Virus record (IMG/VR): IMGVR_UViG_2778261094_000010
Coordinates: 1 to 48,461 of that record
Strand: one strand, 5' to 3'
Origin: a virus
Lineage: Duplodnaviria; Heunggongvirae; Uroviricota; Caudoviricetes
DNA length: 48,461 bases
In this document: piece by piece, positions 23,369 through 48,440 of the stretch
How positions within the stretch are numbered: the first letter of the stretch is position 1
How the letters are laid out: each line of letters starts with the position of its first letter
Notes under the pieces: model-generated
What the model saw: only the letters and a program-made list of their open reading frames with translations
Told to the model about the DNA's origin: nothing
The model's database searches: none
Translations under genes and position numbers: made by a program

Positions 23369-23369
23369 A

Positions 23370-23930: not shown

Positions 23931-23979
23931 CGGTGTACTCCATAAAGCTGAAAAAGGAGGCCGAAGCCCCCTTTGCTCA

Positions 23980-25360: not shown

Positions 25361-25396
25361 TGAAAAAAGGCCCGGAAAAAATCCGGGCCTTTATCG
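25361..25396 (-). terminator. Rho-independent terminator (bidirectional hairpin GGCCCGG-N7-CCGGGCC flanked by A and T runs)
   Basis: Perfect 7-bp stem with A6 upstream and T-rich downstream, immediately 3' of the minus-strand gene ending at 25399. Confidence 0.7.
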
Positions 25397-25398
25397 CT

Positions 25399-25647
25399 TT
25401 ATTGTTTCACTGGCTCCCGCATTCTGCGTCTTATTTTCCACAAATATTCGATCATCGCTTCCACCTGCTCACGGTTGGTTGCGAAAATTTCCCCGGTCAG
25501 TGAGCTACGCAGAAAATCATGATGATCCACAAAAAATAACGCATCGGAAGAAAGCAACCGACGATATTTTTTTGCTGTCGTGGTTTCCAGATCATCAAAA
25601 CCATGAAGCTTTTTATGTTGCTGAACTTCTTCAAATGTCACTGGCAT
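25399..25647 (-). CDS. Hypothetical satellite protein
   Basis: 82 aa ORF overlapping the upstream gene end and followed by a terminator; no recognisable motif. Confidence 0.4.
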   Translation of the reverse strand: MPVTFEEVQQHKKLHGFDDLETTTAKKYRRLLSSDALFFVDHHDFLRSSLTGEIFATNREQVEAMIEYLWKIRRRMREPVKQ

Positions 25648-26180
25648 GTATCCCCCTTTGCTGCCCGGCGCTGGCGCTTGTGCTTCTCATTCAGCACCAT
25701 CAGCCGTGTTTCTGCCTCCTGCTGTTCCTGTGGTGTCACTTCCCCACATGGCTGGCCTTTCAGGTCGTAACGTGCGCCACCAGCTATCAGGGCGCGGTAA
25801 TAGCGCGGAGACTGCGCATAGGATGCCAGCGTCGCACGTAATACCCCCGACCCGAATGCCAGCCCCCTGACGGCGATATCCTGCATCAGGTCGTCGAATA
25901 TCCCCACCTTAAGCGGCTTCGGTGCTTTATGGCTGAATAAGTCAGGCCACATCTCAGTGAGGCGGTTAACGCGTCGGCGGTTTTTGCGCTGCCTTTTGGT
26001 CATATGCTGCCACGGTGTCGCCCCTGCGGTCTTCTGTTTGCGGCTCTGCTGTGCGTTCTGATTATCGGGTATCACTTTATGCGCCGATGTGGTTTTATCC
26101 TGCTCTTGCGCCGCCTGCGTCGTTTTCTGCGGCGTGCCGTAAATGCCTTTCGGCTTCCGGTTAATGGTCAGCGTTGTCAT
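25638..26180 (-). CDS. ProQ/FinO-family RNA-binding protein (putative RNA chaperone)
   Basis: Basic N-terminus, then a FinO/ProQ-like core (PLKVGIFDDL...RYDLKG). Confidence 0.55.
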   Translation of the reverse strand: MTTLTINRKPKGIYGTPQKTTQAAQEQDKTTSAHKVIPDNQNAQQSRKQKTAGATPWQHMTKRQRKNRRRVNRLTEMWPDLFSHKAPKPLKVGIFDDLMQDIAVRGLAFGSGVLRATLASYAQSPRYYRALIAGGARYDLKGQPCGEVTPQEQQEAETRLMVLNEKHKRQRRAAKGDTCQ

Positions 26181-26216
26181 GCCTTCCCCCGTAATTACTC
26201 TGTTCGCTGTTGTGAA

Positions 26217-26642
26217 TTAAAACGGTATGTTATCCCCGTACGGGTCATCGTGCTGGCTTGTCTGTTGTTTTGCCCTGTTCAGTGCGTCAGTGGCCTGGCC
26301 CTGTTGACCTTTTTTGCCGCCCGGTCGCGCCGTTCGCGCACTGATTACGCTGTCTGCAATAACCTGCCAGCCCTGCCGCGTTTCCCCGTTCTGGCCTGTC
26401 CACTGGCTCACCTGCATGTTACCCGCCACGCTCACCAGTTCGCCTTTGTGGTGTTTTGCCAGTGCGTCGGCCTGTCTGCCAAACGCCAGGACAGATAACC
26501 ACATCGTCGCCGTTCCGTCATCTGCCTGGCTGCACGGCAGGGGAACCGCCATACTCGCCATCGCCATTTGTGTCCCTTTGCTGGTGGTCTTTAACTGCGG
26601 GTCAGCCACCAGCCGCCCGTAAGCCGCTATCTGTGCTGTCAT
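26217..26642 (-). CDS. ssb: Single-stranded DNA-binding protein (SSB)
   Basis: OB-fold-like N-terminal region, Gly/Gln-rich linker and an acidic C-terminal tail ending DDPYGDNIPF (compare the canonical SSB DDDIPF tail). Confidence 0.7.
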   Translation of the reverse strand: MTAQIAAYGRLVADPQLKTTSKGTQMAMASMAVPLPCSQADDGTATMWLSVLAFGRQADALAKHHKGELVSVAGNMQVSQWTGQNGETRQGWQVIADSVISARTARPGGKKGQQGQATDALNRAKQQTSQHDDPYGDNIPF

Positions 26643-26706
26643 GCTGTCTGTTCTCCGGTTTTAACGTTGATTGTTACGCTTGTTTACACCCTTACGGTGA
26701 AATTCT

Positions 26707-26829
26707 GCGGGTTATAATCGCACTTTTGCGGGTTATAACTGCCGTTTTGCGGGTTACGTGCGGGTTATTGATTTCCTTTTTATTCATACAGTTAATGCAC
26801 TTATACACAGGATAACCCGCATAACCCGC
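26707..26829. repeat. Iteron cluster A (putative satellite replication origin): 4 direct GCGGGTTA(T/C) repeats, AT-rich spacer, 2 inverted ATAACCCGC copies
   Basis: Direct copies at 26707..26715, 26728..26736, 26749..26757 and 26760..26768; inverted copies at 26812..26829; located just downstream of the replication protein gene. Confidence 0.7.
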
Positions 26830-26852
26830 AACTTTTTACATCACACAGGGGG

Positions 26853-28976: not shown

Positions 28977-29287
28977 TTTGCCTTTCCCCGTTCACGAATA
29001 ATTTCACGTACTGCCTTAATGCGTTCCATTCCTGTAACGCGCATGATTCTGTCGATGTCGCTTAATTCTGCTGGTGGTGCTTTGCTTACCAGGGGGAACT
29101 CCCTTTCAAAGCGCATATGCGACGACACGCAGGGATGCGCATAACCTTCGCGGATATAGGTCACGCGAAAATCATCGACGGTTTTAATCGTTATCGTGCT
29201 GCCGTATTTATCCCGGAAAATATCGCCGGGGCGGATTTCAGGCCGAGCGTGACCGCTGGCAGTAAAGCCAGAATTTTTCTTTTTCAT
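28973..29287 (-). CDS. Hypothetical satellite protein
   Basis: Start assigned to the ATG at 29287 (MKKKNSGF); translationally coupled to the replication gene. Confidence 0.4.
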   Translation of the reverse strand: MKKKNSGFTASGHARPEIRPGDIFRDKYGSTITIKTVDDFRVTYIREGYAHPCVSSHMRFEREFPLVSKAPPAELSDIDRIMRVTGMERIKAVREIIRERGKAK

Positions 29288-29294
29288 GTTTTTT

Positions 29295-29543
29295 TTACTC
29301 CAGAGGCAGCTTTTTAGCGGCGAGCTCAATATCAGATGTCAGAGAAACCTGTGTATTTGCCAGGTCTAACAACAAAGAAATAAGAATTTCTTCTCTGCTA
29401 TCGGATTTATCGGTGCTAAGGCTGTTCATCCACATATTGACGACTTCCCTGATTTTTTTCGCAGAGTGCAGGGCTTCAAATGCCAGGCCTTCAATATCAT
29501 GTTTATTTCGCATAATCGCCCCCGCCATTTTCACAATCAGCAA
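29295..29543 (-). CDS. Hypothetical satellite protein
   Basis: 82 aa ORF in the early operon; no recognisable motif. Confidence 0.35.
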   Translation of the reverse strand: MLIVKMAGAIMRNKHDIEGLAFEALHSAKKIREVVNMWMNSLSTDKSDSREEILISLLLDLANTQVSLTSDIELAAKKLPLE

Positions 29544-29748
29544 TCAGGATGGCTTTTGCCTCATTCAGCGCCATATCAGCACTAAATTGCATAAGAGCCA
29601 GTGAGTGAGGAACGAAAGCCCCGGTATATTCTGTTTCGCTGGTGGCGTGCTTATGCGCCTTGTCTGCGATAACAGAAATATCAATCAGCGCGTGCATCAG
29701 CGTTTTGATGGCTTCGGCGGCTGCGTCCGGTGTGGTTTTATTATGCAT
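29503..29748 (-). CDS. Hypothetical satellite protein
   Basis: 81 aa ORF in the early operon; no recognisable motif. Confidence 0.35.
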   Translation of the reverse strand: MHNKTTPDAAAEAIKTLMHALIDISVIADKAHKHATSETEYTGAFVPHSLALMQFSADMALNEAKAILIADCENGGGDYAK

Positions 29749-29944
29749 AGGTTTCCCCCTGGCGAATACGGGCGGCGAATACCATCACGCAGCCATCAGG
29801 AGATTGCTGACGCGCTTCCTGTTCGCTGGTGGCCTCAATGGTAATCACGCGCGGTTGTGCCGTGCTCAGGGCGATAAAACGCCAGATGTATTTATTCAGG
29901 TTGTACGAGTCCCGCCCTTGCGGGTGTCTGGTATAATTTCTCAT
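29741..29944 (-). CDS. Hypothetical small protein, first gene of the minus-strand early operon
   Basis: 67-codon ORF (MRNYTRHPQGRDSYNL...) with a GAGG ribosome-binding site, transcribed divergently from the operator region. The listed 349-aa ORF is treated as a read-through artefact. Confidence 0.4.
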   Translation of the reverse strand: MRNYTRHPQGRDSYNLNKYIWRFIALSTAQPRVITIEATSEQEARQQSPDGCVMVFAARIRQGETYA

Positions 29945-30041
29945 AGCTACCTCGATACGCTTTCTATCGTTGGTGGTTAGAAGCCCGGTTAGTGTTAGCG
30001 CACTGCCGGGTTTCGTCGTTTCTGCACCTTGCATCAGTAAG

Positions 30042-30093
30042 GTGTTGAACACCAATTTAAGCCCTGGTGTTAAACACGTCAAGTGTTGAACAC
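30042..30093. promoter_or_regulatory. Operator-like triple palindrome GTGTT(G/A)AACAC in a divergent promoter region
   Basis: Near-palindromic 11-mers at 30042..30052, 30067..30077 and 30083..30093, between the minus-strand early operon and the plus-strand small regulator gene. Confidence 0.6.
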
Positions 30094-30143
30094 TTATTTT
30101 TTTTCCTGCATACTGCATTTGTTTTTTGTAAGGGGTACACAAC

Positions 30144-30323
30144 ATGGCAACAAAAGCAGTAAACGCAAAATCACAAACAGTTGCGGCAAGGGTTCCGCAT
30201 GAAGTTATGAACAATGTTGAGGCGGTAAAAATGCCTGGTGAAAGTACAGGGCAGTTTGTAACAGCAGCATTAAAGCGAGAAGTTGAATACCGCCAGCGTC
30301 GCAAGGCCAAAGAGCAGGAATAA
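30144..30323 (+). CDS. Small putative DNA-binding regulator (59 aa)
   Basis: ATG at 30144 preceded by an AAGGGG ribosome-binding site, immediately downstream of the operator palindromes; small basic protein with a KREVEYRQRRKAKEQE tail. Confidence 0.5.
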   Translation: MATKAVNAKSQTVAARVPHEVMNNVEAVKMPGESTGQFVTAALKREVEYRQRRKAKEQE

Positions 30324-30380
30324 CCATCACCAGCGCCGTGGTGTAAGGTATTACGGCGCATTGCTATGCAGGACAACACA

Positions 30381-30554
30381 ATGACCGATAAAGAATTGAC
30401 CAAAACATTATCACCGACACGGAAAAGACGGCGCAGAAAGATAGAGCATGAATCAGAAAGATTCGCACCTTGTTCGTTTGCTCTTGAGAAATTCCTTAAA
30501 GAGCGCAGGAAAAAACTCTCGTTGCAAACCTTGGAACGAACCAAATCTGACTGA
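30381..30554 (+). CDS. Hypothetical small basic protein
   Basis: 57-codon ORF (MTDKELTKTLSPTRKRRRRK...) with an AGGA ribosome-binding site, followed by tandem terminators. Confidence 0.3.
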   Translation: MTDKELTKTLSPTRKRRRRKIEHESERFAPCSFALEKFLKERRKKLSLQTLERTKSD

Positions 30555-30620
30555 TCACATTGCCCACCAGCCGCAAATGTGGCATTGTTGGTGATGCTTT
30601 TGTTTTCCCTTGTTCCCACT

Positions 30621-30650
30621 GGCGACCCTTTTGCGGTCGCCTTTGTTTTG
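30621..30650 (+). terminator. Rho-independent terminator (GGCGACC-CTTTTGC-GGTCGCC followed by TTTGTTTTG)
   Basis: Perfect 7-bp stem followed by a T tract, downstream of the plus-strand small ORFs. Confidence 0.7.
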
Positions 30651-30745
30651 CCTGTTATCCTGCAACTATGGTCATTTCGACCACGGTTGATATAATCCCC
30701 CCGCACAGATTCATTTTTTGCGCAGTAGGTTAATTGTTCGCAAGG

Positions 30746-30780
30746 GCGCTCCGGTAACGGGGCGCTTTTTGTTTTTACCC
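30746..30780 (+). terminator. Rho-independent terminator (8-bp stem with GTAA tetraloop followed by TTTTTGTTTTT)
   Basis: GCGCTCCG-GTAA-CGGGGCGC hairpin (one G-U pair) followed by a T-rich run; second of two tandem terminators. Confidence 0.65.
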
Positions 30781-30934
30781 ACCAGCACAATAAAAATCTT
30801 CATTTTCCATTTTTGTAAAATTTCATGCTTTCCGGACGACTGGTAATATGTCATTTTTTAGCAGAAGATTTTGCCTTGCTGGTGGGTAGCTTCCCGGTCA
30901 ACACGATGTACCGTATAATCAACACCGCGTGTGG

Positions 30935-31531
30935 TTACTGAATACGCTCACCAAAGTAAAACTCAGGCTGGTATTCACGTATCAGCCTTTTTTCTTCTTC
31001 CTCCAGTTCACGCTTTTTGCGCTTACATGCCTGTAGCTCCCTCCCCTTCTCGCTGGCACTTATCTGGTATTGCTCTTTGCGGCGGGAAAAATCCTGTAAT
31101 GCTCCCCACGGGATACCATAAGCCCCCGTTTTTCTGATACCCGGTATCACATTTCTGAATACCCAATTACTGAAACGATGGGCGAACGTGCCAGGATTAA
31201 CAGCTTTGCGACTTCTGGCGATCAACTTGTAAAAACCTGATTCTGATACAACATTCCAACTTCTGGCACCACCACGCTTACCTGAATGACCCTCGGTTAA
31301 AGCTAGGGTCATTACCTCATCGCTATCCAGAACTGAAACAGCATCGGTAACGTTGCTAATTTCCAGCGCCGCACACACATCAGCGCCAACAAACCACGGA
31401 TCGCCGTTCAGATACACCACGCGAACGTTCACACTATCAAAGCGCAGAACGACCAGATCACGAATATCACAGAATTTTTTCACATGACGTGCGTCACCCT
31501 TGCCCGTCGCGGCAATATTTTTATTCATCAC
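30935..31531 (-). CDS. Bro-N domain protein (antirepressor-like)
   Basis: Bro-N signature (FDSVNVRVVYLNGDPWFVGADVCAALEI...SGFYKLIARSRK) with a Lys/Glu-rich coiled C-terminus. Confidence 0.7.
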   Translation of the reverse strand: MMNKNIAATGKGDARHVKKFCDIRDLVVLRFDSVNVRVVYLNGDPWFVGADVCAALEISNVTDAVSVLDSDEVMTLALTEGHSGKRGGARSWNVVSESGFYKLIARSRKAVNPGTFAHRFSNWVFRNVIPGIRKTGAYGIPWGALQDFSRRKEQYQISASEKGRELQACKRKKRELEEEEKRLIREYQPEFYFGERIQ

Positions 31532-31585
31532 TTTCTACCTCACATACAAAAAACCCCGCATTGCGTGGTGCGGGGTTGTCGGTAA

Positions 31586-31864
31586 TTACTTATTGGCGTT
31601 TTTGTATGGGCTGTTTACTTCCTTTACTCCTGGCGGATGCATAACCCACCAGAGCACATCAGAGAGCAACCAGGAAACAGACACTTTCCCTAAATGAGCA
31701 CGAGCAGGAAATGCTCCCTCCTGTTCAAGTACCCAACGTCTGCTTCTTGAAAGCCCGGTACGATTGGCACACTCATGTTCGCGTATACGGCGATCATACG
31801 GTTCGCCATGTTCTTTCAGAATCTGAATGCGTTCTTCGGGTGTAGGATAAATAAATTTTTGCAT
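31586..31864 (-). CDS. AlpA-like helix-turn-helix regulator (second copy)
   Basis: Translation from MQKFIYPTPEERIQILKEHGE with an AlpA-type C-terminal helix-turn-helix (TGLSRSRRWVLEQEGAFPARAHLGKVSVSWLLSDVLWW). Confidence 0.5.
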   Translation of the reverse strand: MQKFIYPTPEERIQILKEHGEPYDRRIREHECANRTGLSRSRRWVLEQEGAFPARAHLGKVSVSWLLSDVLWWVMHPPGVKEVNSPYKNANK

Positions 31865-31927
31865 AAAAATATCACCTATAAAAAAACCCGCCAAAAGACG
31901 GGTTGATTATATCTCATTTAATTTAGT

Positions 31928-32161
31928 TCAGGGTTTCCATTCACCCTTTACCCATTCCAGCACCTCAGATAAGCGCCAGACTTTTGTTTGTGGGCCAATA
32001 CATATTTTCCGTGGAAATTTTCCTTCCTTTTCAAGTAATGCTCTGTGTCTCCTGCCAAGAGCTGTTAACCATGCACATTCATCTTCCTTAATCATCCTGT
32101 CGATTGTTTTATCATTTTCAAGTTCTTCACGCGTAACTATTTCAATCATTACCGTCACCAC
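31928..32161 (-). CDS. alpA: AlpA-family transcriptional regulator / excisionase-like protein
   Basis: 77 aa with AlpA-like helix-turn-helix (LTALGRRHRALLEKEGKFPRKICIGPQTKVWRLSEVLEWV); immediately downstream of and overlapping the integrase gene. Confidence 0.75.
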   Translation of the reverse strand: MVTVMIEIVTREELENDKTIDRMIKEDECAWLTALGRRHRALLEKEGKFPRKICIGPQTKVWRLSEVLEWVKGEWKP

Positions 32162-33350
32162 TAATTAGCTTATTCAGATAGTCGTACCACCAGTTCATAG
32201 CTTCTTTTTTTCTGTCCATATACTGACTTCTGTTATAAACCCCGGCAACACCGCCTAATGTGTGCCCAAGCAACTGTTCAACCACATTATGTTCAAAACC
32301 ATGATCACTTAGCTTTGTGGCAAACACTCTTCGCATATCATGCGCCGTCCATTTTTCCGAGTGTTTCATCCTTTTCCATGTCTTACCGATAGTTACGCTT
32401 GCCGTACACTGACGCATATCAAACCCAATCACATTTTCTTTGTTACCTGTTATTTTTTTTAACGTAACTAACCAGTTAAACATGCCATCAGGAATCGGTC
32501 TGATTATTTCCCTGCCATTTTTGCTATGATCAGCGGGAACGCGCCATAATTTCTTATCAAAATCCCACTCTACCCAGGACGACAGTAATACTTCTGACAG
32601 TCGACAACCAAAAACTACCAGGAAACGTAAAATAATTCGGTTTTCATATGATAATTCGTGATTGTCATAATCAGTATTAATACTTCGCCATAAATCTCTG
32701 ATTTCATCATCTGTTAAAACCCTGCTTCTTCGCGCAGACTTTTTTCCCACATCACAGACCTCAAGATCATCAATTTCATGACTAATCGCGTATTTTCTTA
32801 CCCTACAAAATTTAAGCGCCTGTTTTGATATACGCAACAAAGCTCCGGCCTGTACAGGTGCTACTTTTTTTATTTTGTCAAAACACTTGATCCACATAGA
32901 TATAGAGCAATCACTAAGTGGTACATGACCAATCACCGGATAAATATGTTTACCAAAGCACTGCCTGATATGTTCTGCTCCCCTACGCTTATCCATTGCA
33001 TAATTATCAAGCCAGTATTCAAGTGCCTCACGAACGGTAACAGGTTGCAAGGTGGCTTCCCGTTCAATTTTTATCTGAATCCGTGGATCTCTGCCCTCCG
33101 CAAGCCAGGTTCGACACTGATCGCGCATCTCTCTCGCTGATTTGAGACTCAGATCAGGATATTTTCCAAGTGTCAGCCAGATGGGCGCGGTTCCCCTTCC
33201 CGCCAGTCTGTAAAAGAAAACAAAACTAACACATCCGTATTTACTGACCCGTACCGAAAGCCCGTTACCATCAGCGATGGTTTCCTGCCTCTCACTCCTG
33301 CGCCCAAGCAGGGAACGAAGTTTTTTATCGCTCAGTTTGTTTAGCGCCAT
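32142..33350 (-). CDS. int: Tyrosine integrase (P4-type site-specific recombinase)
   Basis: C-terminal catalytic motifs (HDMRRVFAT, LLGH, GVYNRSQY); start assigned to the ATG at 33350 (MALNKLSDKKL); lies about 170 bp from the right junction core. Confidence 0.9.
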   Translation of the reverse strand: MALNKLSDKKLRSLLGRRSERQETIADGNGLSVRVSKYGCVSFVFFYRLAGRGTAPIWLTLGKYPDLSLKSAREMRDQCRTWLAEGRDPRIQIKIEREATLQPVTVREALEYWLDNYAMDKRRGAEHIRQCFGKHIYPVIGHVPLSDCSISMWIKCFDKIKKVAPVQAGALLRISKQALKFCRVRKYAISHEIDDLEVCDVGKKSARRSRVLTDDEIRDLWRSINTDYDNHELSYENRIILRFLVVFGCRLSEVLLSSWVEWDFDKKLWRVPADHSKNGREIIRPIPDGMFNWLVTLKKITGNKENVIGFDMRQCTASVTIGKTWKRMKHSEKWTAHDMRRVFATKLSDHGFEHNVVEQLLGHTLGGVAGVYNRSQYMDRKKEAMNWWYDYLNKLISGDGND

Positions 33351-33517
33351 GTGATTTATAACCCGTTTTTGCAATACACAGTGCAATACACAAATGATGA
33401 AAACAGCCAGAACCTTCCAGAAAAAACAAAAACGACGAACAAGAAAAAATCTTTTTCTTTCATTTGGTTACTAAAAAAATCAGGACAGGTCGCACTGTTG
33501 TTACGGCGTGATGTTAC

Positions 33518-33537
33518 TTTCTTGGTAAAAAAATTCA
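33518..33537. repeat. Right attachment junction (attR-like): exact 7-bp core TTGGTAA at 33522..33528 plus imperfect flanking match
   Basis: Direct repeat of the 18605..18611 core; boundary between satellite DNA (integrase side) and the helper terL N-terminal fragment. Confidence 0.65.
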
Positions 33538-34549
33538 CCCGCGCAGAGACCTGTTCTTTCGCTTTTTTCGCCAGGCGACGCAGATCATCCCAGCGTTTAC
33601 AGATGCCCAGGCCGGGATTCGCTTTCTGCCAGACCGTTTCATCAAACGGATCATCTCCCTCATCGAGGGTGTAAATAATCGCAAAGTAGGAGTCGTCTTT
33701 TACCGCGCCCTCCACGTCGCTGTTATAGCCTCGCAATACCTTGATGGCGTAATCGCGTTGCTCGTAACAAATCCCTTCCTTGTTAAAGCCAGCCGTGGTG
33801 ATACCAAATAACAGGGACTGCAGACGGGCACCGGTTGCCGTTTCCAGAACGTCCCACACGTCGCGGGTTTTATGTGCATGCAGCTCATCAATAATGGCGC
33901 AGTGGATGTTCAGACCATCCAGGTTGTTTGCATCCGAGGAAAGCGGTTCAAATTTTGATGCGCTCTGCTCCTGGTAAATCGCCAGCTTGTTGAAATCAAA
34001 CAACCGCCCGAGTGTCGATCGGGCTTTTCTGACCATATTTTTGGCGTCTTCAAACACGATTCTGGCCTGGTCACGCGTGGTTGCGGCTGAATACACCTCA
34101 GCCCCGCCTTCACCATCTGCCCCCGTCATATACAGACCGATACCTGATGACAGGGTTGATTTTGCGTTTTTACGGGCGACTTCGTTGTACGCTGTCCGGA
34201 AACGGCGCACCATCACCGGGCGTCCGCTGCCATCGCTGCGCATGACAACTTCCCCGGTCTCTTCATTCACCAGCGGAATGACAAAACCAAAAATATTAAT
34301 GAGGATAAAAACATGCCAGTCCATCAGTTCAATGGGCTGACCTGCCAGCGCCCCTTTTACATGGGGCACAAATTTGTAGAAATTCAGGATGTGCTGCGCA
34401 CGGGGTTCACTGAAATAAATCCCCCGCTCTTCGCCGTACTTCAGATCATCAAGAAAACGCTGGCAGGCCAGACGGACAAATTCACCAGCGACAATTTCTC
34501 CTGCAACAACACGTTCGGCGTAGCGGATCCCGTCAGCCACTTTTGCCAT
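33522..34549 (-). pseudogene. terL: Helper prophage terminase large subunit, N-terminal ATPase-domain fragment (5' part of a terL split by the satellite)
   Basis: Translation through DETVWQKANPGLGI...ARVNFFTKK parallels satellite TerL (DDPAMWIKANPNID...EMLTKRFNIW), then runs into unrelated low-complexity sequence (VTSRRNNSATCPDFF...) after the junction at about 33522; the ORF's true stop is at 33356. Confidence 0.8.
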
Positions 34550-38176: not shown

Positions 38177-38253
38177 TGGCGCGTTGTACTGGATTCGAAC
38201 CAGTGACCGATTGCTTAGAAGGCAATTGCTCTGTCCGGCTGAGCTAACAACGC
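38177..38253 (-). tRNA. tRNA-Arg (anticodon UCU)
   Basis: Manual cloverleaf: acceptor GCGTTGT/ACAACGC, anticodon stem ATTGC/GCAAT, loop CUUCUAA, T-loop GGTTCGAATCC, 3' CCA. Confidence 0.85.
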
Positions 38254-38266
38254 AGGGTACAGATAA

Positions 38267-38343
38267 TGGACCGCCATCGAGGACTCGAACCCCGCGCAAC
38301 CAGCTCCGAAGGCTGGCGCTCTATCCTGATGAGCTAATGGCGG
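38267..38343 (-). tRNA. tRNA-Arg (anticodon UCG as parsed)
   Basis: Manual cloverleaf: acceptor CCGCCAT/ATGGCGG, anticodon stem CCAGC/GCTGG, loop CUUCGGA, T-loop GGTTCGAGTCC, 3' CCA. Confidence 0.8.
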
Positions 38344-38350
38344 TATGTGA

Positions 38351-38426
38351 TGGTGGCCCTTGCTGGATTTGAACCAGCGACCTGGCGATTATGAGTCGCT
38401 CGCTCTCACCACTGAGCTAAAGGGCC
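38351..38426 (-). tRNA. tRNA with CAU anticodon (tRNA-Ile2 lysidine type or tRNA-Met)
   Basis: Manual cloverleaf: acceptor GGCCCTT/AAGGGCC, anticodon loop CUCAUAA, T-loop GGTTCAAATCC, 3' CCA; first of three tandem tRNAs in an ileZ-argN-argO-like arrangement. Confidence 0.8.
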
Positions 38427-38475: not shown

Positions 38476-39525
38476 TCAAACGATTAAATCCTGAACTTCC
38501 CTGACTGTCTGTTCAAAACGTCCGGTCTCCAGCTCAACACCAATCGCACAACGCCCCAGTGCCATCGCCGCTTTTACCGTTGAACCTGAACCCATAAAAA
38601 AATCTGCAACCAGGTCTCCCGGACGACTGCTCGCGTTGATTATCTGCTGCAGCATTTCTGCCGGTTTTTCGCACGGATGTTTCCCTGGATAGTACTGCAC
38701 CGGTTTATGCGTCCAGACATCGGTGTACGGAACCTGCGCCGTCACACCGAAATACCGCCGCAAATTTTTATATTCACTCAGCAGTTCCGTATACTGCCGG
38801 TTCAGCTCACTGTATGTGCTGACCAGCTGGTGGTGTGGCTTTTCCAGTTCCCCGCGCTGATGTTTTTCTGCCGCAACACGCGCAAACAACGCCTGCAATT
38901 TATTGTAATCACCCTCGTTCGGTAACTGCCACTGACTGGCACCAAACCAGTGCGAAGCCATGTTTTTCTTTCCGGTGGCTTCCGCTATCTGTTTTGACGT
39001 TATTCCCAGTGATTTACGCGCATCACGAAAGTAAGAAATCAGCGGGGCCATGACGTGCTGTTTTAGCTCGCGCCCCTGCTCCACATAGCCATCATCTTTC
39101 GGGCGATACGGTCCCTGATAATGTTCTGCAAACAGAATGCGCTCTGTTGCCGGAAAATACGCCCGCAGACTTTCCTTATTGCACCCGTTCCAGCGTCCGG
39201 ACGGCTTCGCCCAGATAATGTGGTTCAGCACATTAAAGCGCTCACGCATCATGATTTCGGTGTCAGATGCCAGGCGATGACCACAGAACAGGTAAAGACT
39301 TCCGGCAGGCTTCAGTACCCGCCAGAACTGCGCCAGACACTGGTCCAGCCATTTCAGGTAATCATCGTCGCCCTCCCACTGGTTATCCCAGCCCTCGGGC
39401 TTCACTTTAAAGTATGGCGGGTCTGTGACTATCAGATCGACAGAATTTTCCGGTAAGGTCTGGATAAATTCCAGGCAATCAGCGTTGATTAACTCACAAC
39501 TGGATATTTTTACAGTATTAATCAT
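38476..39525 (-). CDS. DNA methyltransferase (N6-adenine/N4-cytosine type, DPPY motif, beta-class order)
   Basis: Catalytic motif LIVTDPPYF near the N-terminus and SAM-binding FFMGSGST near the C-terminus. Confidence 0.85.
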   Translation of the reverse strand: MINTVKISSCELINADCLEFIQTLPENSVDLIVTDPPYFKVKPEGWDNQWEGDDDYLKWLDQCLAQFWRVLKPAGSLYLFCGHRLASDTEIMMRERFNVLNHIIWAKPSGRWNGCNKESLRAYFPATERILFAEHYQGPYRPKDDGYVEQGRELKQHVMAPLISYFRDARKSLGITSKQIAEATGKKNMASHWFGASQWQLPNEGDYNKLQALFARVAAEKHQRGELEKPHHQLVSTYSELNRQYTELLSEYKNLRRYFGVTAQVPYTDVWTHKPVQYYPGKHPCEKPAEMLQQIINASSRPGDLVADFFMGSGSTVKAAMALGRCAIGVELETGRFEQTVREVQDLIV

Positions 39526-40092: not shown

Positions 40093-40836
40093 CTAATCTG
40101 ACGTCACACGCACCATTATACTTACTAAAGAAAAGTCATCATCAGGTCCGGCTCTCTCTATACGACGCAAAATGCCATTAGAAAACTTCTGACTATTACT
40201 CATCGTATTTGATGTAAATCTGGGGCGTTTTTCCCAAACGTTATGAACCCCATCAGACATGATACACAGATGATATACCCCGTTAATACTAGGTAAATCT
40301 TTCCATGTGATAAAATCACAGTCGTATTCCATATCAACATTTGAGGCTATAGCCGTCGTTAAGATATTTTTGCCCGGTTTATCCTTCAAATCTCTGGGTT
40401 TAAAAATATTCTGATCAATTAGCATCTGATGCCTGGTATCGTCCTTCGTCAATTGGTATGCTTTCTTCTCTCCAATGCAATACAAACGACAATCACCAAT
40501 ATGACCAATAATAATTCCGCTATCACAAACATAACAAAACGTAAGTGTAGTAGCAGCTTTATCGAACTCATCATTAACATCAGCTAACGACATAACCTTT
40601 CGCTTAACTTCATCAAATACATCCGGAACTGTGTCAAAAGATAAGCTTGTCAATGCTGAAAGTTCAGCAATTGCCATTGATGAAGCCTGACTGGCACCAG
40701 TGTATGAACCTACACCATCAGCTACGGCAAATAAGATGCCATCCCCTACAATTTTGGGAGGAAGCAATGAATCTTCGTTGACCCTACCTGGTTCTTTTGG
40801 ATACGAGAATGATGAAGTCGCTATCAGCTGAATCAT
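40093..40836 (-). CDS. PP2C-family Ser/Thr protein phosphatase
   Basis: PP2C metal-binding motifs (NED, FAVADGVGS, GDCR, MSDGV); ATG overlaps the kinase stop (ATGA); AT-rich codon usage. Confidence 0.85.
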   Translation of the reverse strand: MIQLIATSSFSYPKEPGRVNEDSLLPPKIVGDGILFAVADGVGSYTGASQASSMAIAELSALTSLSFDTVPDVFDEVKRKVMSLADVNDEFDKAATTLTFCYVCDSGIIIGHIGDCRLYCIGEKKAYQLTKDDTRHQMLIDQNIFKPRDLKDKPGKNILTTAIASNVDMEYDCDFITWKDLPSINGVYHLCIMSDGVHNVWEKRPRFTSNTMSNSQKFSNGILRRIERAGPDDDFSLVSIMVRVTSD

Positions 40837-41597
40837 GACTCACTCCTTAAAAAAGAATGCACAAAATCAAACGCCACATCATCTATTGTCTGATATCTAT
40901 CATCTTTATCCATCCTGGTACACTTCGCTATGATAGGCTTTATTTTTTTATCATCTAAATTTAAGTCCTCAATTAACCGCCCCACCGCATAAACATCAGT
41001 CTTAACTGAATACTCGGCATTATATAAAATCTCGGGAGCCATATATCTTGTACTTCCCATACGGGTACCGATCTCGGTCAATTTAGTGGTATCCCCTTCG
41101 GGATTTGTATCTTTTACCAGACCAAAATCAGACACCTTGTATGTTCCGTCGCTAAATCGCAAGACATTAAATGGTTTTATATCTCTGTGTAAATAGCCTT
41201 TCGCATGGATGTGAGCTACACCATCTAATACCATTTTCACTATTGAAATTTTTTGATCTGTTGTAAGAAGGTTGTTCGTTATTTCGTGCTCAAGATCACA
41301 TTCTGCTTTATCCATAATGAACCATGGATTCTCGGCAAACAAATCGCACAAATAAATAGGAACAATATTGCTATGTACGCAATGTGATTGATACACGACC
41401 TCCCTTTTAAAACGCCTTCTAAACTGCTCTATTTGCGCCAAAAGCTCTGGTTTTTCGGGGGCTAAAACCTTTCTAGCATAATCCCCACATTCACCCTTGT
41501 TGAGGTTGTAAACCTTAACGTGTTCAACAAAGCCAAATGCACCCCTTCCAATCAACTGAATTCGTTTTATAAAGTAATTACCGTGCTGTTCTTCCAT
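40833..41597 (-). CDS. Hanks-type Ser/Thr protein kinase (kinase domain only)
   Basis: Complete kinase subdomain set: glycine loop GRGAFGFV, catalytic Lys in YARK, HRDIKPFNV, DFG, TRYMAPE, DVYAVG. Start assigned to the ATG at 41597 (MEEQHGNYF). Confidence 0.85.
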   Translation of the reverse strand: MEEQHGNYFIKRIQLIGRGAFGFVEHVKVYNLNKGECGDYARKVLAPEKPELLAQIEQFRRRFKREVVYQSHCVHSNIVPIYLCDLFAENPWFIMDKAECDLEHEITNNLLTTDQKISIVKMVLDGVAHIHAKGYLHRDIKPFNVLRFSDGTYKVSDFGLVKDTNPEGDTTKLTEIGTRMGSTRYMAPEILYNAEYSVKTDVYAVGRLIEDLNLDDKKIKPIIAKCTRMDKDDRYQTIDDVAFDFVHSFLRSES

Positions 41598-41669
41598 TAA
41601 GCTCACCGACCTAAATTGTAAGAATATCCATATCTTACAACTACAGATAAAAAGGTCCACAGAGTTAAG

Positions 41670-41695
41670 CAAAAAACCCGCATTTAAGCGGGTTT
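41670..41695 (-). terminator. Rho-independent terminator downstream of the Q-like gene (possible tR'-like site)
   Basis: Hairpin ACCCGC-ATTTAA-GCGGGT followed on the minus strand by a T6 run, about 50 bp after the Q-like stop. Confidence 0.6.
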
Positions 41696-41741: not shown

Positions 41742-42437
41742 TTAATTGACTTTTGCAATATCTCGTCGTGAAAAGGTCGCTTTTTGTTGCGATCTCATTT
41801 TCACGGTGCAAATCAAGGATTCTGTATCGAGTTTCTTAAAAATGTCGCACATCTCACGCCAGTAGTTCGCATAATTATGGCTCCAGTTGTCAGGCTTAAC
41901 TCCACACAGTCTGGCAAGTTCCTGTCGCTGGTAGACGTCACGCCCAGTAATCCTCCCCCTGACATCCTGCGCCGCCAGCCAGATTAATTTCTTCAGACGC
42001 TCAAGCGTTTTCCCTGTAATTTTTCTGGTGCCAAAATGCACCTGAAACTTATCCCACGCCCATTTCGCAATGACCACCTGATAATCCCAACTCGGATTTT
42101 CACTGTATACCCACAGCACCCACGCCTTCTGATGCTCTTCAAGAGACAGAACGGCGCGTCGCCATGATGATGTCGAAAACTCAACCGGACTGACCAGGGC
42201 AATTGATGAACCTTTCGCCAGCGATTGCTTTCCCGGGATCGGTGGATTATCCAGCGTTACCATTTTTCCAGTGACCTTATCGCGGTACCGGATTTTTTTA
42301 CGTCTGTAACGCCCTGTATCAAACATGGCATTCTCCTGCCAGGCTTCAAGCTGACCTTTTGTTGCCCCACTCAAATCGGCGGTGGCGATAATGAGCTGCT
42401 CACGAACAAACTGTAAATACTGGTTATTCATGCGCAC
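41742..42437 (-). CDS. Putative late-gene antiterminator Q-like protein
   Basis: 231 aa basic protein directly after rusA and directly before an intrinsic terminator and the late-region morons; assignment rests mainly on conserved lambdoid gene order. Confidence 0.45.
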   Translation of the reverse strand: MRMNNQYLQFVREQLIIATADLSGATKGQLEAWQENAMFDTGRYRRKKIRYRDKVTGKMVTLDNPPIPGKQSLAKGSSIALVSPVEFSTSSWRRAVLSLEEHQKAWVLWVYSENPSWDYQVVIAKWAWDKFQVHFGTRKITGKTLERLKKLIWLAAQDVRGRITGRDVYQRQELARLCGVKPDNWSHNYANYWREMCDIFKKLDTESLICTVKMRSQQKATFSRRDIAKVN

Positions 42438-42787
42438 TCCAGCTCTGTGATTTTTATCCCCAACCGACCACCAGGAACAGGCAGTCCGCGCACAATATTG
42501 ATTTCATCAAACTGCTCGTCGTCGATAAGCAACCCCGCATGTGTCAGTGCATCCAGTGGTGCTTTCAGAATATTGTCCAGGTCACGACGGCGCTTATCCG
42601 GTGGCTCTGCAATAATCTTTATCGCCAGCCGTCCGGACAGGTTTAATTTCAGCCGCTGCTCGCGAACAATTAGCGCCACATCCCGGCGATAACGCTCACC
42701 GGCTTTTGATACAAAATATGTGTTGTCACGACGTCGCCAGTAGGTGTTCACCGTTGGCGGATAAGGCAAAACAAACTCTATACGCAT
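42428..42787 (-). CDS. rusA: Holliday junction resolvase RusA
   Basis: 119 aa, MRIEFVLPYPPTVNTYWRRR... with the conserved acidic patch (RRRDLDN) typical of the RusA family. Confidence 0.85.
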   Translation of the reverse strand: MRIEFVLPYPPTVNTYWRRRDNTYFVSKAGERYRRDVALIVREQRLKLNLSGRLAIKIIAEPPDKRRRDLDNILKAPLDALTHAGLLIDDEQFDEINIVRGLPVPGGRLGIKITELECA

Positions 42788-44734: not shown

Positions 44735-45157
44735 TCATCGTAAAACATCCTCCGCGCTTATCAGCCCATTCCGCTCCAGATACCCCATCGCCATATCCGG
44801 TAATTTGCAATCTGGTTTCGCTTTTTTCAACTGACTTACCAATTGTTTAACCAGCATTGCCAACTCTTCCTCATGTGAAAGTGATGCCGGTTGCGCAGCG
44901 TACAGGGGTTTTGGCGCAATGGCTGAGTGTTTTGCGTATGCCGCAACAGATTCAGCATTGAACAAAACCATATTGTGAGCACAGGACCATGCAACTGGCA
45001 TTGCTTCAAGTGAGGCAAGCGCAATACGGGCAAGCGCAAGATCCATTTCAATGGCAACTCTTGAAGTCTTAAACACGGTCTGTCGCGCAGCAAATTTCAT
45101 GGATTTCACACTTTCATTAGCATGAGCAATCAATTGCTCTCTGGTAAATTTCGTCAT
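44735..45157 (-). CDS. Hypothetical phage protein
   Basis: ORF from MTKFTREQLIAHANESVKSMKF (ATG at 45157); no recognisable motif. Confidence 0.45.
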   Translation of the reverse strand: MTKFTREQLIAHANESVKSMKFAARQTVFKTSRVAIEMDLALARIALASLEAMPVAWSCAHNMVLFNAESVAAYAKHSAIAPKPLYAAQPASLSHEEELAMLVKQLVSQLKKAKPDCKLPDMAMGYLERNGLISAEDVLR

Positions 45158-45328
45158 ATTTTTCTCATCCAGTCCTGTCGCTATGCCTGCGCAACCATTA
45201 CCCCACAATTACATCACAGGGGGTAATGGTTGCAATTCAGTGGCCACCGCGAGATTCACATCATTCACAATAAATCATAAAAATACACGCAATCACAGAC
45301 CATAATAAAAGAACTGTTTCGGCCACAA

Positions 45329-45679
45329 TCACAAGACCTTCCCACATTTCTTTTTCCCACACCTCCTGAAACCAGAGAGTCGGCATATCGCCCCCCTCTG
45401 AAAAACAACCACATGTCCTAGCTTCTCCGCCAGAGCCAGTTCCGCTTTAGCGCCTGCTGACCGTTGCCAGTCTTTCAGCATATAAATCGCATCCACGCTA
45501 CGTATCATTGCCATGCAGATATCCATGTAGTGCGGCTGTGTCAGCCCGTCCGGAAGTACTGCCGGGTTCAAGACTGTATGCCCTTCCCGTTTCAGTTCCT
45601 CTTCCGCCTTGTGGAACGCCTCACGGTTGAAATTTTTATACCCGGTCATTGGACCGGCAATATAAACTCTCACCCTCAC
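45329..45679 (-). CDS. DUF4406-like protein (nucleoside 2-deoxyribosyltransferase-like fold)
   Basis: N-terminal MRVRVYIAGPMTGYKNFNREAF motif typical of the deoxyribosyltransferase-like family; ATGA-type coupling to the upstream gene. Confidence 0.55.
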   Translation of the reverse strand: MRVRVYIAGPMTGYKNFNREAFHKAEEELKREGHTVLNPAVLPDGLTQPHYMDICMAMIRSVDAIYMLKDWQRSAGAKAELALAEKLGHVVVFQRGAICRLSGFRRCGKKKCGKVL

Positions 45680-45957
45680 TCCTGAACTCTCCTGTCGAAA
45701 TAAACGTAGTTATTCACTGTGCGCAACGGCATTCCAAATTTTCTGGCGATTTCTCTCCTGGGTACGCCACGCTGATGCAGCTGTCGCGCCAGTTCAATAT
45801 CACTCTGCGGATATTTTGTTGACTGGTGATAATCACCCCGTAACATCAGGCTGACACCCAGTTCCCGCGCTTTCGTTCTGACAGCACCACCTGTACGACC
45901 GGTCAGCCTCCCAATGCTTTCGACCGTCATCGTTCCCGCACACTGCCGGAGTATCAT
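45676..45957 (-). CDS. Putative helix-turn-helix DNA-binding protein
   Basis: ORF from MILRQCAGTMTVESIGRLTGRTGGAVRTKARELG with a second helix-turn-helix-like segment (PRREIARKFGMPLRTVNNYV); the start at 46080 was rejected because of overlap. Confidence 0.4.
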   Translation of the reverse strand: MILRQCAGTMTVESIGRLTGRTGGAVRTKARELGVSLMLRGDYHQSTKYPQSDIELARQLHQRGVPRREIARKFGMPLRTVNNYVYFDRRVQE

Positions 45958-45989
45958 GATTTCAGCCTCGTACCACTTCTTCCAGCCAC

Positions 45990-46751
45990 TCACCGCTGCA
46001 GCTCTCCGGTCGCGGTAATATCCCGAAGAATATCCCGGTGCTTGTTCAGCTCCCGCAGCGCGGCGCAGACTCGTTCCCACTTCTGGACATGACTTTTCGC
46101 CCGACGCAGTTCGAGGTTTGCCATATGCAGCGATGGTAAAATCAGGTCATCCGCTCGCGTTTCAGTAAACGATGGCAGCGACTGCACAATGCCCGCTACA
46201 GTTTCTGTTTTAATTTCTTCCTGTGTTGCGGCTTCCCGGACTGGTAACGCAACACCTGCTGGCTGAGGAAAGGCCTTACCATCATTTTCCGTTACCGATG
46301 CTGCTTTCGGCTCTGCTGGTAAATTACCGCCCGGCATGCAGTAACGAAATTTACCGCTCTGATTAACGCGTGCCAGCCGCCCCGTTGCGGTTACCACCGC
46401 CAGCGTGGAAGCAACCTTGCGAGTACTGATGCCGAACTTACCCGCCAGTTCCTCACACGTTTTAGCCCCATCCTGACCGATAAACTCAATCATCATGTCT
46501 GCGGTAACTTTTTGTTCGACCTCCCCGGTCAGCATATCCTGTGCTTCAGATTTTACTGGCCGCTCTTCGGTTACCAGGGATTCACCTTCGCCAGCCAGAA
46601 ACCAGGTGTGACCAGTTTTATCAACGACGCCATTTCTTTTGAGTTCCCACAGCTCGTTGAGAACCTCTTCACGACTGATATCAAGTCGCGCGGCCAGTTC
46701 TACCGATGTGGCTTTTCCCATTGCTTTCAGTGCGTCAAAAACGGTTTCCAT
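45990..46751 (-). CDS. Winged-helix domain protein of the replication region (DUF1627-like)
   Basis: N-terminal winged-helix-like segments ([28 protein letters not shown]; [20 protein letters not shown]), Glu/Thr-rich middle. Confidence 0.5.
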
Positions 46752-46772: not shown

Positions 46773-47519
46773 TTACTTCACAACCCTCAGGTGTCTGACA
46801 TTCGAACGCCAGCTCTCCCAGTTAAAATTCACCCAGCGACCACCGTTCATGACCATGCGGTCCATCACACGCTCGCCAAGAAGCGTACTCATCGCTACGT
46901 GGTTCAGGTTCGTCAGCATTCCGACACTACGCATCGAAGCCGTTCTGCGGTCGACTATCTGGTTCAGTGTGACCTGCTCGTTGCGCGTATCCCGCTGCAT
47001 TCCAATTTCATCCAGGACAAGCAGGTCAACATCACACAACCCCTGTAAAAATTTTTCGCCTGAGTTTTTGTTGTCGTAGCTGTTGTGTAACGCCAGCATC
47101 ACATCAGCCACCGTTATCACAATCACGCTGCGACCTTTCGCCAGAAGATGATTGCCAATGGCGGCTGCAAGGTGGTTCTTTCCGGTACCCGGCTTACCGC
47201 TGAACACAAAATTCGTGCACCCGGTCATCAGTTCGTCAGCGATGGATTTTGCCTGGCTCAGCGCGTGTTTTTGCCCGTCGTTCTGCACCTGATAATTCGC
47301 AAACGAGCATTTGCTGTGCAGAGGCTGGATGCCCGAACGATTCAGGATTTTTTCCACCCGCAACTGGCGATTCTGGCGGTTGATCTCCTCGCTACGTTTT
47401 CGCCCTTCAGCCAGTTGCCACTCGCGCCACTCATCCACTGTCCGGTACGGCGCGATTACATGCTGCGGGGTCAGCTTACGGATACGCTCAAGAACACCAC
47501 CTGCCGCGATATTTTTCAT
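46773..47519 (-). CDS. DnaC-like replicative helicase loader (IstB-like AAA+ ATPase)
   Basis: Walker A GKPGTGKNHLA and Walker B DLLVLDEIG; follows the replication initiator gene. Confidence 0.85.
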   Translation of the reverse strand: MKNIAAGGVLERIRKLTPQHVIAPYRTVDEWREWQLAEGRKRSEEINRQNRQLRVEKILNRSGIQPLHSKCSFANYQVQNDGQKHALSQAKSIADELMTGCTNFVFSGKPGTGKNHLAAAIGNHLLAKGRSVIVITVADVMLALHNSYDNKNSGEKFLQGLCDVDLLVLDEIGMQRDTRNEQVTLNQIVDRRTASMRSVGMLTNLNHVAMSTLLGERVMDRMVMNGGRWVNFNWESWRSNVRHLRVVK

Positions 47520-47525
47520 GGCCCG

Positions 47526-48440
47526 TTACCCCCTGAACCCCGGCGGAATTTCGGTATCCGGCTCAGAAATATGATTCACACAACGCTGTACAGACGAACG
47601 CCCCAGGCGGATAACCAGTTCATCCCATTTTTCGCGAAGCTTTGACGGACTCATGATATTTTTTACCCAGAATGGATCCCGCTGCACCCGACCAAACATT
47701 TCACAAATTTGTCTGTGAGTTCTGCCATCCAGCATCCGCATTGTGCGCACGTCGTTGGCCCATGCGGTCCAGTTGGGTTCTTTCGGTCGCGAAATCTCGC
47801 CATCATCGCTGGCGGCCTGCTCGTAAAGACTCACGATTCGTCCCCAGATCCACTGCGCACACGCCAAATCTTCCTGGTTGCCCCACTGGCGTTTTTTTGC
47901 ACTGAACACAACCGCGTCAGGGTGTCGGGTTAAAAAATCCTGTTCAACCGTCTGCGGGTCCGGTTGCGAAGCTTCCGGACGAGAAGTGTTTTTATTCTCT
48001 GTAGTAATCTCTGTTGTATTCTCTGTAAGATCATCAGGCCATTTTGACCCGATGACATTGAGTCGTTTTGAACCAATGGAGCGTTTCATTTTGATCTCTT
48101 CCATCGTGTCATTTTGACCTGATGGAGCGGCGCATTTTGAACCGATGGATTCGCTCACTTTGCCACCATCTAAAAGCTCGTTCCCGTAGTTGATCGTGTA
48201 GAAATTGGTCATATCGCGCTTTGATTTATTGAGCTTTTCACAACGCAAAAGCCCCAGCGTTTTCAGACTTGCAAACGCGCGCTTTAACGTTGACTCTGAC
48301 CAGAACGGGAACTGTTCCAGCCATTGTTCTGTTGTGTTATAAATCCAGCGAACACCATCACATTCCATGCCGGAACCGGTATCTCTTAACCAGTAATGCA
48401 ACTGCTGCAACACGATGGCTTCGTTCAGACCAATTTTCAT
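47526..48440 (-). CDS. Replication initiation protein (O-like, helix-turn-helix N-terminus, DnaT-like C-terminal region)
   Basis: 304 aa from the first ATG; the frame stays open to the window edge, so the true start may lie outside the window. Confidence 0.6.
   Translation of the reverse strand: MKIGLNEAIVLQQLHYWLRDTGSGMECDGVRWIYNTTEQWLEQFPFWSESTLKRAFASLKTLGLLRCEKLNKSKRDMTNFYTINYGNELLDGGKVSESIGSKCAAPSGQNDTMEEIKMKRSIGSKRLNVIGSKWPDDLTENTTEITTENKNTSRPEASQPDPQTVEQDFLTRHPDAVVFSAKKRQWGNQEDLACAQWIWGRIVSLYEQAASDDGEISRPKEPNWTAWANDVRTMRMLDGRTHRQICEMFGRVQRDPFWVKNIMSPSKLREKWDELVIRLGRSSVQRCVNHISEPDTEIPPGFRG

Follow-up and report, generated by a model that had tools for sequence, protein, structure and literature searches.

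A DUF4406 protein from a phiP27-like Escherichia coli prophage: predicted nucleoside 2-deoxyribosyltransferase fold and a candidate role in deoxynucleotide editing

The stretch of DNA analysed here, called the window, comprises all 48,461 nucleotides of IMG/VR record IMGVR_UViG_2778261094_000010 (Caudoviricetes) and represents a phiP27-like (lambdoid) Escherichia coli prophage. Its minus strand carries a gene for a protein that starts MRVRVYIAGPMTGYKNF... (= MRVRVYIAGPMTGYKNFNREAF...) and contains the motif YIAGPMTG (Table 1). The protein has a full-length DUF4406 domain: Pfam PF14359 scores 127.2 bits (E 3.4e-37; gathering threshold 22 bits), with residues 4–93 lying on positions 2–91 of the 91 in the profile. 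This confirms the DUF4406-type family proposed in a preliminary description of the locus that was made from the sequence alone. PHROG 355, named 'nucleoside 2-deoxyribosyltransferase', matches with E 2e-46. NCBIfam gives no match for the protein, PADLOC gives none at E ≤ 1, and a single-protein sequence search of the PDB returns nothing meaningful. In E. coli FDAARGOS_1077 an identical protein with the same coordinates is annotated by PGAP as WP_044325711.1, 'DUF4406 domain-containing protein', and the surrounding 3-kb segment is also 100% identical. Of 5426 complete E. coli genomes, 1178 contain the 285-nt core at ≥80% identity, under the same name in every one, and an exhaustive HMMER scan recovers homologs in 10,820 clusters (50% identity) at E ≤ 1e-3. 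The gene is an ordinary, already catalogued and annotated member of a very common family. Over codons 1–94 the median dN/dS against 66 prophage homologs is 0.09 (Nei–Gojobori); the gene is real and under strong purifying selection.

An AlphaFold2 model of the protein, built on an alignment of 65 sequences, has a mean predicted local distance difference test (pLDDT) score of 88, with ten-residue block means of 92–98 for residues 1–90. It has a minimal, Rossmann-like alpha/beta fold with four strands (residues 4–8, 35–37, 64–67 and 90–93) and three helices (15–31, 48–60 and 75–87). The top Foldseek matches in the PDB are nucleoside 2-deoxyribosyltransferases (NDTs) from T. brucei (TbNDT, 2a0k, E 2e-5), C. 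thermalis (8pqp) and L. mexicana (6qai), followed by MilB (4jem), DNPH1/Rcl (8qhq and 4fyi) and BcmB (4jen), all with probability 1.00. The NDT matches span E 2e-5 to 9e-4 at a TM-score of about 0.65 normalised to the 116-residue query, and a TIR domain (7xoz) is found among the weaker matches. Many phage proteins among predicted viral structures match the model with a root-mean-square deviation of about 1 Å over about 95 residues. By sequence alone, the family profile is linked to 2a0k with E 3e-4; its comparisons with 6qai, BcmB, BlsM and MilB fall just below significance. The model thus supports an NDT superfamily fold, as the preliminary description had suggested from the N-terminal motif, and the structural similarity to this fold is present since both Foldseek and the profile match NDTs. 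We regard DUF4406 as a stripped-down branch of the superfamily of about 95 residues.

The alignment of the family with characterised enzymes predicts an active site. Profile alignments to TbNDT, BcmB and BlsM agree with a weak hhalign alignment (E 0.19) to DmtZ, an enzyme of Gordonia phage Ghobes. Conservation is given as counts among 262 DUF4406 family sequences. Tyr6, at the end of strand 1, aligns with the Tyr of YIAGP in TbNDT, a residue of the catalytic triad, and is Tyr in 233 sequences and Phe in 20. In MilB this position is Phe, and the F17Y exchange moves its preference to deoxyribose (PMC10603095); in NDTs, the exchange of Tyr for Phe widens specificity toward ribonucleosides (PMC12645435). 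Glu80, which follows strand 3 and is conserved in 246 of 248 sequences, aligns with the nucleophilic Glu of TbNDT, BcmB and BlsM and with E103 of DmtZ, and is the predicted catalytic nucleophile. The equivalent residue of DNPH1, E104, forms the covalent intermediate (PMC10603095).

The pocket around the 5' position resembles that of nucleotide enzymes. Ser74 is invariant (251 of 251 ungapped sequences) and aligns with the Ser of the SPGTH motif of BcmB and BlsM and with the Asp of EPDCGTAFE in TbNDT. At this site NDTs use Asp or Asn for the 5'-hydroxyl group, and nucleotide hydrolases use small uncharged residues (PMC12884076). S98 of DNPH1 coordinates the phosphate, and its equivalent in MilB, S97, coordinates the 5'-phosphate (PMC10603095). 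S74-x-G76 is therefore a predicted 5'-phosphate loop. Within the N-terminal loop G9 is kept in 253, M11 in 234 and T or S at position 12 in 247 sequences, and T12 would occupy the position of R23 in MilB and R30 in DNPH1. By register, M11 and Y51 would correspond to I29 (Tyr+5) and I76 of DNPH1, which sandwich the base, and M11 likely stacks on the base. Pro39 aligns with the Pro after strand 2 of TbNDT, described as conserved in all known transferases (PMC12884076); the hydrolase BlsM has Ala there.

Two of the defining features of canonical NDTs are not found. The Asp or Asn that binds the 5'-hydroxyl group is replaced by Ser74, and the position of the general acid in the triad, N53 in TbNDT and D62 in CtNDT (PMC12645435), is occupied by Cys55. 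Cys55 lies opposite the Asn of 'RQKN' in TbNDT, the Asp of BcmB and BlsM and, according to hhalign, N77 of DmtZ. The family column holds 213 Cys (about 81%), 20 Asp, 8 Ala and 8 Thr, and the nearby D53 is variable (182 of 262). The canonical NDT family PF05014 stays below threshold, with 15.0 bits against a cut-off of 28.8 bits (E 0.029). The second phosphate-binding Ser of the DNPH1 type and the helical element with E55 and H56 are both absent from the model. The DUF4406 protein belongs to the NDT superfamily by its fold and its nucleophile, yet it departs from canonical NDTs in two defining features and has no classical triad acid.

Family membership, fold, conservation of the Glu, Tyr and Ser positions, purifying selection and genomic position are thus shown, and from here on we infer which class of substrate the protein uses, by what chemistry and for what biological purpose. 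We tentatively favour, with a confidence that stays somewhat short of even, a deoxynucleoside-5'-monophosphate N-glycosidase and/or phosphodeoxyribosyltransferase that edits nucleotide pools in lytic growth. A nucleotide is preferred over a nucleoside as substrate because invariant Ser74 matches the Ser of the CMP N-glycosidases, whose equivalents hold the 5'-phosphate. A deoxyribose is preferred over a ribose because of the Tyr at position 6, given the Phe of MilB and the effect of F17Y. Transferase activity is considered possible because Pro39 matches the Pro of transferases where BlsM has Ala. The preliminary description had put forward action on nucleotides or on nucleotide-derived signals as possibilities, of which action on nucleotides gains indirect support.

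The proposed mechanism would run as follows. An active minimal NDT-superfamily enzyme would be expressed together with the delayed-early genes of the prophage. It would bind a 2'-deoxynucleoside 5'-monophosphate (dNMP) with the base between M11 and Y51 and the phosphate on the S74-A75-G76 loop, possibly aided by T12, N18 and R19. Glu80, oriented by Tyr6, would attack C1' and expel the base, which would leave a covalent ester of deoxyribose 5-phosphate with the enzyme. This ester could be resolved by water, as in an N-glycosidase of the DNPH1 type, or by another base, as in a phosphodeoxyribosyltransferase of the DmtZ type. While the phage DNA is replicated, the enzyme would thereby edit or sanitise the pool of deoxynucleotides, downstream of enzymes that produce dNMPs.

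The genomic company of DUF4406 in other phages is consistent with such a role. In Mycobacterium phage Mufasa/TM4, the gene for gp55, which contains DUF4406, runs into the start of the gp56 gene, whose product is a PF18909 dATP/dGTP diphosphohydrolase (E 2.3e-39; PHROG 801). In Mycobacterium phage Sotrice96, gp112 is a DUF4406 protein (local hmmsearch, E 3e-17) and gp114 belongs to PF18909, with one gene between them. Other PF18909 genes adjoin a gene of the DmtZ-Dut type (HeadNerd) or a 5'-nucleotidase gene (Engineer). The adjacency of DUF4406 and diphosphohydrolase in two mycobacteriophage lineages mirrors the DutZ/DmtZ pair. In this characterised pair, DutZ/DUF5664 and DmtZ turn dATP into dAMP, from which adenine is released or dZMP is made by transfer (PMC12884076). 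Proteins with the DUF4406 fold also occur in BFVD under the name dATP/dGTP diphosphohydrolase N-terminal domain-containing, and PHROG 12019, 'MazG-like pyrophosphatase', includes a DUF4406 segment. Further family members are found in the early accessory region of a Mu-like phage, next to a DUF968 gene in Vibrio phage Her, and near RusA in Arthrobacter phages. For two more distant members, one contig is short and uninformative and the other is the Mu-like phage just named.

A Pfam scan of 47 long DUF4406 proteins for fused domains finds only sporadic helix-turn-helix (HTH) and DUF551 domains; the extensions mostly belong to no Pfam family, and gene-calling artefacts may account for some of them. 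The HAD-like N-terminus of one of them (P0258) reaches only the uncharacterised PDB entry 2obb (E 1.4e-3). As a separate observation, a DUF4406 variant of 203 residues (the P0085/P0093 type) bears a different, unannotated extension of about 105 residues. Many contigs from E. coli and Salmonella carry it. Together with the label plasmid on some records, the length of the longest contig, about 90 kb in most of its clusters, suggests phage-plasmids as carriers of this variant.

Within the window, the DUF4406 gene stands in the minus-strand order O-like, DnaC-like, DUF1627/YdaW, HTH, DUF4406, hypothetical, hokD, DUF968/HNH, RusA and Q (Table 1). Its placement in the early region by the preliminary description holds, as replication genes on one side and RusA/Q on the other, all of the same strand, flank it in a nin-like delayed-early region. 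The stop of the HTH gene overlaps the start of the DUF4406 gene by 4 nt (GTGA), and the two are therefore probably translationally coupled. A promoter and terminator scan around the gene finds nothing above shuffle expectation, including between the HTH and DUF4406 genes. In 80 IMG/VR loci from close enterobacterial prophage relatives, ydaW/DUF1627 or LygF-like genes are found upstream and Ead/Ea22-like genes downstream. A separate feature lies between the DUF4406 stop and the next gene, where a 14-bp perfect inverted repeat, GCAACCATTACCCC...GGGGTAATGGTTGC (45191–45233, minus transcript), forms a strong hairpin; the minimum free energy of the 181-nt region is −60.7 kcal/mol with a z-score of −3.7. 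No U-run follows the hairpin and the terminator scan makes no call. It could stabilise the RNA or serve as a site of processing or recombination.

Table 1. Features of the DUF4406 gene and its neighbours in the window (48,461 nt).
Feature	Position	Strand	Description	Basis
DUF4406 protein, whole coding sequence	45329..45679	minus	116 aa; GTG start at 45679; stop codon 45329-45331	open reading frame list, Pfam, PGAP
Conserved DUF4406 domain	45401..45670	minus	residues 4-93	Pfam span, AlphaFold2 model, Foldseek
YIAGPMTG loop	45641..45664	minus	residues 6-13	sequence, family conservation, DNPH1/MilB register
Cys55 codon	45515..45517	minus	triad Asp/Asn position	profile alignments and hhalign
S74-A-G76-A77-K-A-E80 motif	45440..45460	minus		aligns with GTAFE (TbNDT) and SPGTH(I/V)E (BcmB, BlsM)
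Lineage-specific C-terminal tail	45332..45397	minus	residues 95-116 (RGAICRLSGFRRCGKKKCGKVL)	homology break and low pLDDT
Small HTH DNA-binding protein gene	45676..45957	minus	upstream of DUF4406	PHROG 323 E 2.9e-24; Pfam HTH sub-threshold
DUF1627/YdaW	45990-46751	minus		
DnaC-like ATPase gene	46773-47519	minus		
O-like replication gene	47526-48440	minus		
Hypothetical gene	44735-45157	minus		
RusA	42428-42787	minus		
Q	41742-42431	minus		

Several points weigh against the proposed editing of deoxynucleotides. The residue equivalences come from sequence and profile alignments and from helix register. The position that carries the general acid of the superfamily is Cys55 in this protein, and therefore its chemistry or its substrate may differ. 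There is no C-terminal segment that could reach the active site of a neighbouring subunit, as S128' of DNPH1 and W124' of DmtZ do, because strand 4, which closes at residue 93, is the last element of the fold; in DNPH1 it is this extension of the neighbouring subunit that donates the second phosphate-binding Ser (PMC10603095). In the window, neither a deoxynucleoside triphosphate (dNTP) pyrophosphohydrolase nor another nucleotide enzyme adjoins the gene, and in the 80 related loci the flanks vary and show no functional partner. The mycobacteriophage members that give the diphosphohydrolase association carry Asp at position 55, not Cys, and the evidence for fusion from BFVD consists of protein names. 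A literature search finds no functional study of any DUF4406/PF14359 member.

The first alternative is a canonical nucleoside 2-deoxyribosyltransferase (EC 2.4.2.6), which swaps bases between free deoxynucleosides for salvage. The name of PHROG 355 and of many phage records, the NDTs as best structural matches, and the presence of the YxAG motif, the transferase-type Pro39 and the catalytic Glu all agree with it. We nevertheless consider it unlikely, given the low score for PF05014, the Ser that is invariant at the 5'-hydroxyl position as in nucleotide-specific enzymes, the Cys in place of the triad Asp or Asn, and the absence of the C-terminal part that completes the neighbour's active site. 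The NDT name itself is unreliable, because three of four tested phage PF05014 NDTs had no transfer activity (bioRxiv 2025.10.22.683976).

This holds for public annotations of NDT-like phage genes in general, which are unreliable. Many phage records use the name 'nucleoside 2-deoxyribosyltransferase' for DUF4406. The stand-alone DUF4406 proteins of several Arthrobacter phages (e.g. Shambre1 gene 62, 2992–3321 of locus L003) are deposited as 'deoxycytidylate deaminase', and DmtZ itself (Ghobes gene 53, 9693–10178 of locus L093) as 'deoxyuridine triphosphatase'. We rejected both names as domain labels, as the genes encode stand-alone DUF4406 or NDT-like proteins.

A second alternative, to which we likewise assign a low probability, is a glycohydrolase for counter-defence or host manipulation that acts on NAD+, NMN, ADP-ribose-derived or other nucleotide immune signals. 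An open site with Cys for the acid Asp, no general acid and no C-terminal lid would fit substrates whose leaving group is good or whose 5' substituent is bulky, but the dispensability of an acid for such substrates is itself something we infer. NDT-like domains take part in phage–bacteria conflict, as in the NDT-like effector of retron Ec86, which depletes adenine derivatives, and a TIR domain is among the weaker fold matches. The gene also behaves as an accessory cassette with gene-exact mosaic boundaries, in lambdoid and Mu-like early regions where anti-host genes are common. Against this, Tyr6 is the deoxy-type residue where ribose-specific MilB has Phe, PADLOC gives no match, and the literature search gave no link of DUF4406 to defence or anti-defence. 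The sole conserved genomic partner that we found is a dNTP diphosphohydrolase.

A bolder form of this idea, which we rate as rather improbable, treats DUF4406 as a distinct catalytic class of the NDT superfamily, whose lid-less core of about 95 residues would hold a Tyr-Cys-Glu site. Its substrate would be a defence-made or signalling nucleotide rather than an ordinary dNMP, and the family would be a widespread phage enzyme of counter-defence or host takeover. The substrate could be a toxic nucleotide analogue, a signal derived from NAD+ or ADP-ribose, or the 5' nucleotide of a larger molecule.

That the protein is a non-catalytic nucleotide binder, a sponge, a sensor or a partner of the neighbouring HTH protein that uses the NDT pocket for binding only, is in our view very unlikely. 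The domain is very small, without triad acid and lid, and the gene is probably coupled to the HTH gene in the window. In an E. coli protein (P0062, 4001–4576 of locus L091), the DUF4406 domain continues into a C-terminal HTH segment, which BLASTP aligns with the end of the window's HTH gene over 43 residues at 77% identity (window 45676–46080). This fusion is a rare chimera in a cluster of three members and the upstream neighbours vary among prophages; it is probably a recombination chimera, with a possible hint of a functional link between HTH and DUF4406. The near-invariant Glu, Tyr and Ser-x-Gly across the 262 sequences form an enzyme-like pattern, which also argues against a mere binder.

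The C-terminus of the protein differs from the conserved part, which comprises only residues 1 to about 94. Most homologs are 96–101 residues long. For 'rac19' of phage Rac-SA53 (101 residues, 93.6% amino acid identity) the nucleotide homology extends only from the start codon to near codon 95, and we therefore regard the gene as a discrete mosaic cassette. Residues 95–116 arise by read-through past the mosaic junction into a different downstream module. The tail is predicted to be disordered, with block-mean pLDDT values of 69 (residues 91–100), 56 (101–110) and 49 (111–116) and values below 50 for residues 97–99 and 111–113. We also considered this Cys-rich basic tail as a functional zinc motif and rejected the idea for the low pLDDT and the origin at a mosaic junction. 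A decaying or spurious open reading frame, for which the last 22 residues, disordered in the model and unlike nearly all homologs, could speak, is extremely improbable and the pseudogene reading was rejected: the domain is intact, dN/dS is 0.09, a cluster of 37 sequences from 46 contigs keeps the 116-residue form itself at 96% identity, and the junction falls past the last strand of the fold.

Other parts of the window hold observations that are independent of the DUF4406 gene. A 14.9-kb element (18607–33521, with junctions near both ends) is inserted in the terminase large-subunit gene terL of the prophage, which is split into 33356–34549 and 17875–18600. The terL gene is intact in the FDAARGOS_1077 prophage, which is otherwise 99.5–100% identical. 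The element carries a tyrosine integrase at one end (32142–33386), Bro-N, a DUF927 primase-like gene and ProQ/FinO, and its own capsid, prohead protease, portal, TerS-like and TerL genes. It has the make-up and size of a capsid-forming satellite similar to phage-inducible chromosomal islands. Its two junctions share only a short TTGGTAA core, and 36 complete E. coli genomes out of 5426 have the int–terL junction. Among phage records LR881103.1 comes nearest, a 16.5-kb 'induced prophage' with 75% identity over the portal–capsid genes, and a narrow literature search on the terL-inserted element found nothing. This element looks more unusual than the DUF4406 gene.

The left two thirds of the window are not collinear with the FDAARGOS_1077 record. 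A 6-kb stretch (8410–14430) in the phiP27-like structural gene block is present in the window and absent from the FDAARGOS_1077 prophage, and the latter thus looks to have lost it. Directly downstream of Q, in the 'moron' position of the late operon, a Ser/Thr protein kinase gene adjoins one for a PP2C-family phosphatase (40093–41672), and a DNA methyltransferase gene follows (38476–39525). Three phage-borne tRNA genes lie at 38177–38426, which ARAGORN assigns as Arg(TCT), Arg(TCG) and Met(CAT). In the PGAP annotation the last of them, with CAT, is a tRNA-Ile, an assignment that implies modification to lysidine.

The DUF4406 family is very large: about one in five complete E. coli genomes has it, and lambdoid, Mu-like, Vibrio and actinobacterial phages carry it in their early regions. 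Phage NDT-like enzymes were only recently shown to reshape deoxynucleotide pools, in the case of DmtZ in Z-genome phages, and many bacterial defence systems centre on nucleotide pools and nucleotide signals. Assigning a function to DUF4406 would cover thousands of phage genes that are hypothetical or mis-named, at present as deoxyribosyltransferase, dCMP deaminase, hydrolase or dUTPase. The chemistry also bears on the question whether Cys can replace the canonical acid in NDT-type enzymes.

Compared with known systems, the protein is a full-length, high-scoring member of PF14359/PHROG 355 in a typical phage early-region location, and differs from most members by its 22-residue tail. Our analysis adds to this family the description of a nucleotide-type, Cys-containing and lid-less site, the mosaic origin of the tail and the diphosphohydrolase association. 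DNPH1/Rcl (2'-deoxynucleoside 5'-phosphate N-hydrolase) shares the fold and the equivalent pairs Y24/Y6, E104/E80 and S98/S74, and by register the base sandwich I29/I76 would resemble M11/Y51. It differs by D80 in place of Cys55, by the helical extension that donates S128', the shielding loop and the E55/H56 element, and by chains of about 130 residues compared with about 95; there is no significant sequence match. The NDTs of PF05014 (2a0k, 8pqp, 6qai) share the YxAGP start, the Pro after strand 2 and the G(T/A)xxE nucleophile motif. They have a 5'-hydroxyl-binding Asp and a triad Asp or Asn where DUF4406 has Ser and Cys, and of their 135–160 residues DUF4406 lacks the C-terminal third. The CMP N-glycosidases MilB, BcmB and BlsM (4jem, 4jen, 5vto) have the same fold and, like DUF4406, the S-x-G-(T/A)-x-x-E motif with the phosphate Ser. 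MilB is ribose-specific with Phe in place of Tyr, and BcmB and BlsM keep the triad Asp where DUF4406 has Cys; BlsM is without the Pro after strand 2 that DUF4406 has. DmtZ, a dAMP hydrolase and deoxyribose-5-phosphate transferase (PMC12884076), is a phage member of the NDT superfamily that, like DUF4406, combines a nucleotide-type phosphate pocket with the transferase-type Pro. Its profile similarity to DUF4406 is marginal, and it differs by its length of 161 residues, the lid Trp124 from the second monomer and Asn77 in the triad. DmtZ comes from Z-genome phages with PurZ, and no such genes are found near the DUF4406 gene in the window; it is partnered with a dATP/dGTP diphosphohydrolase, as is DUF4406 in Mufasa/TM4 and Sotrice96.

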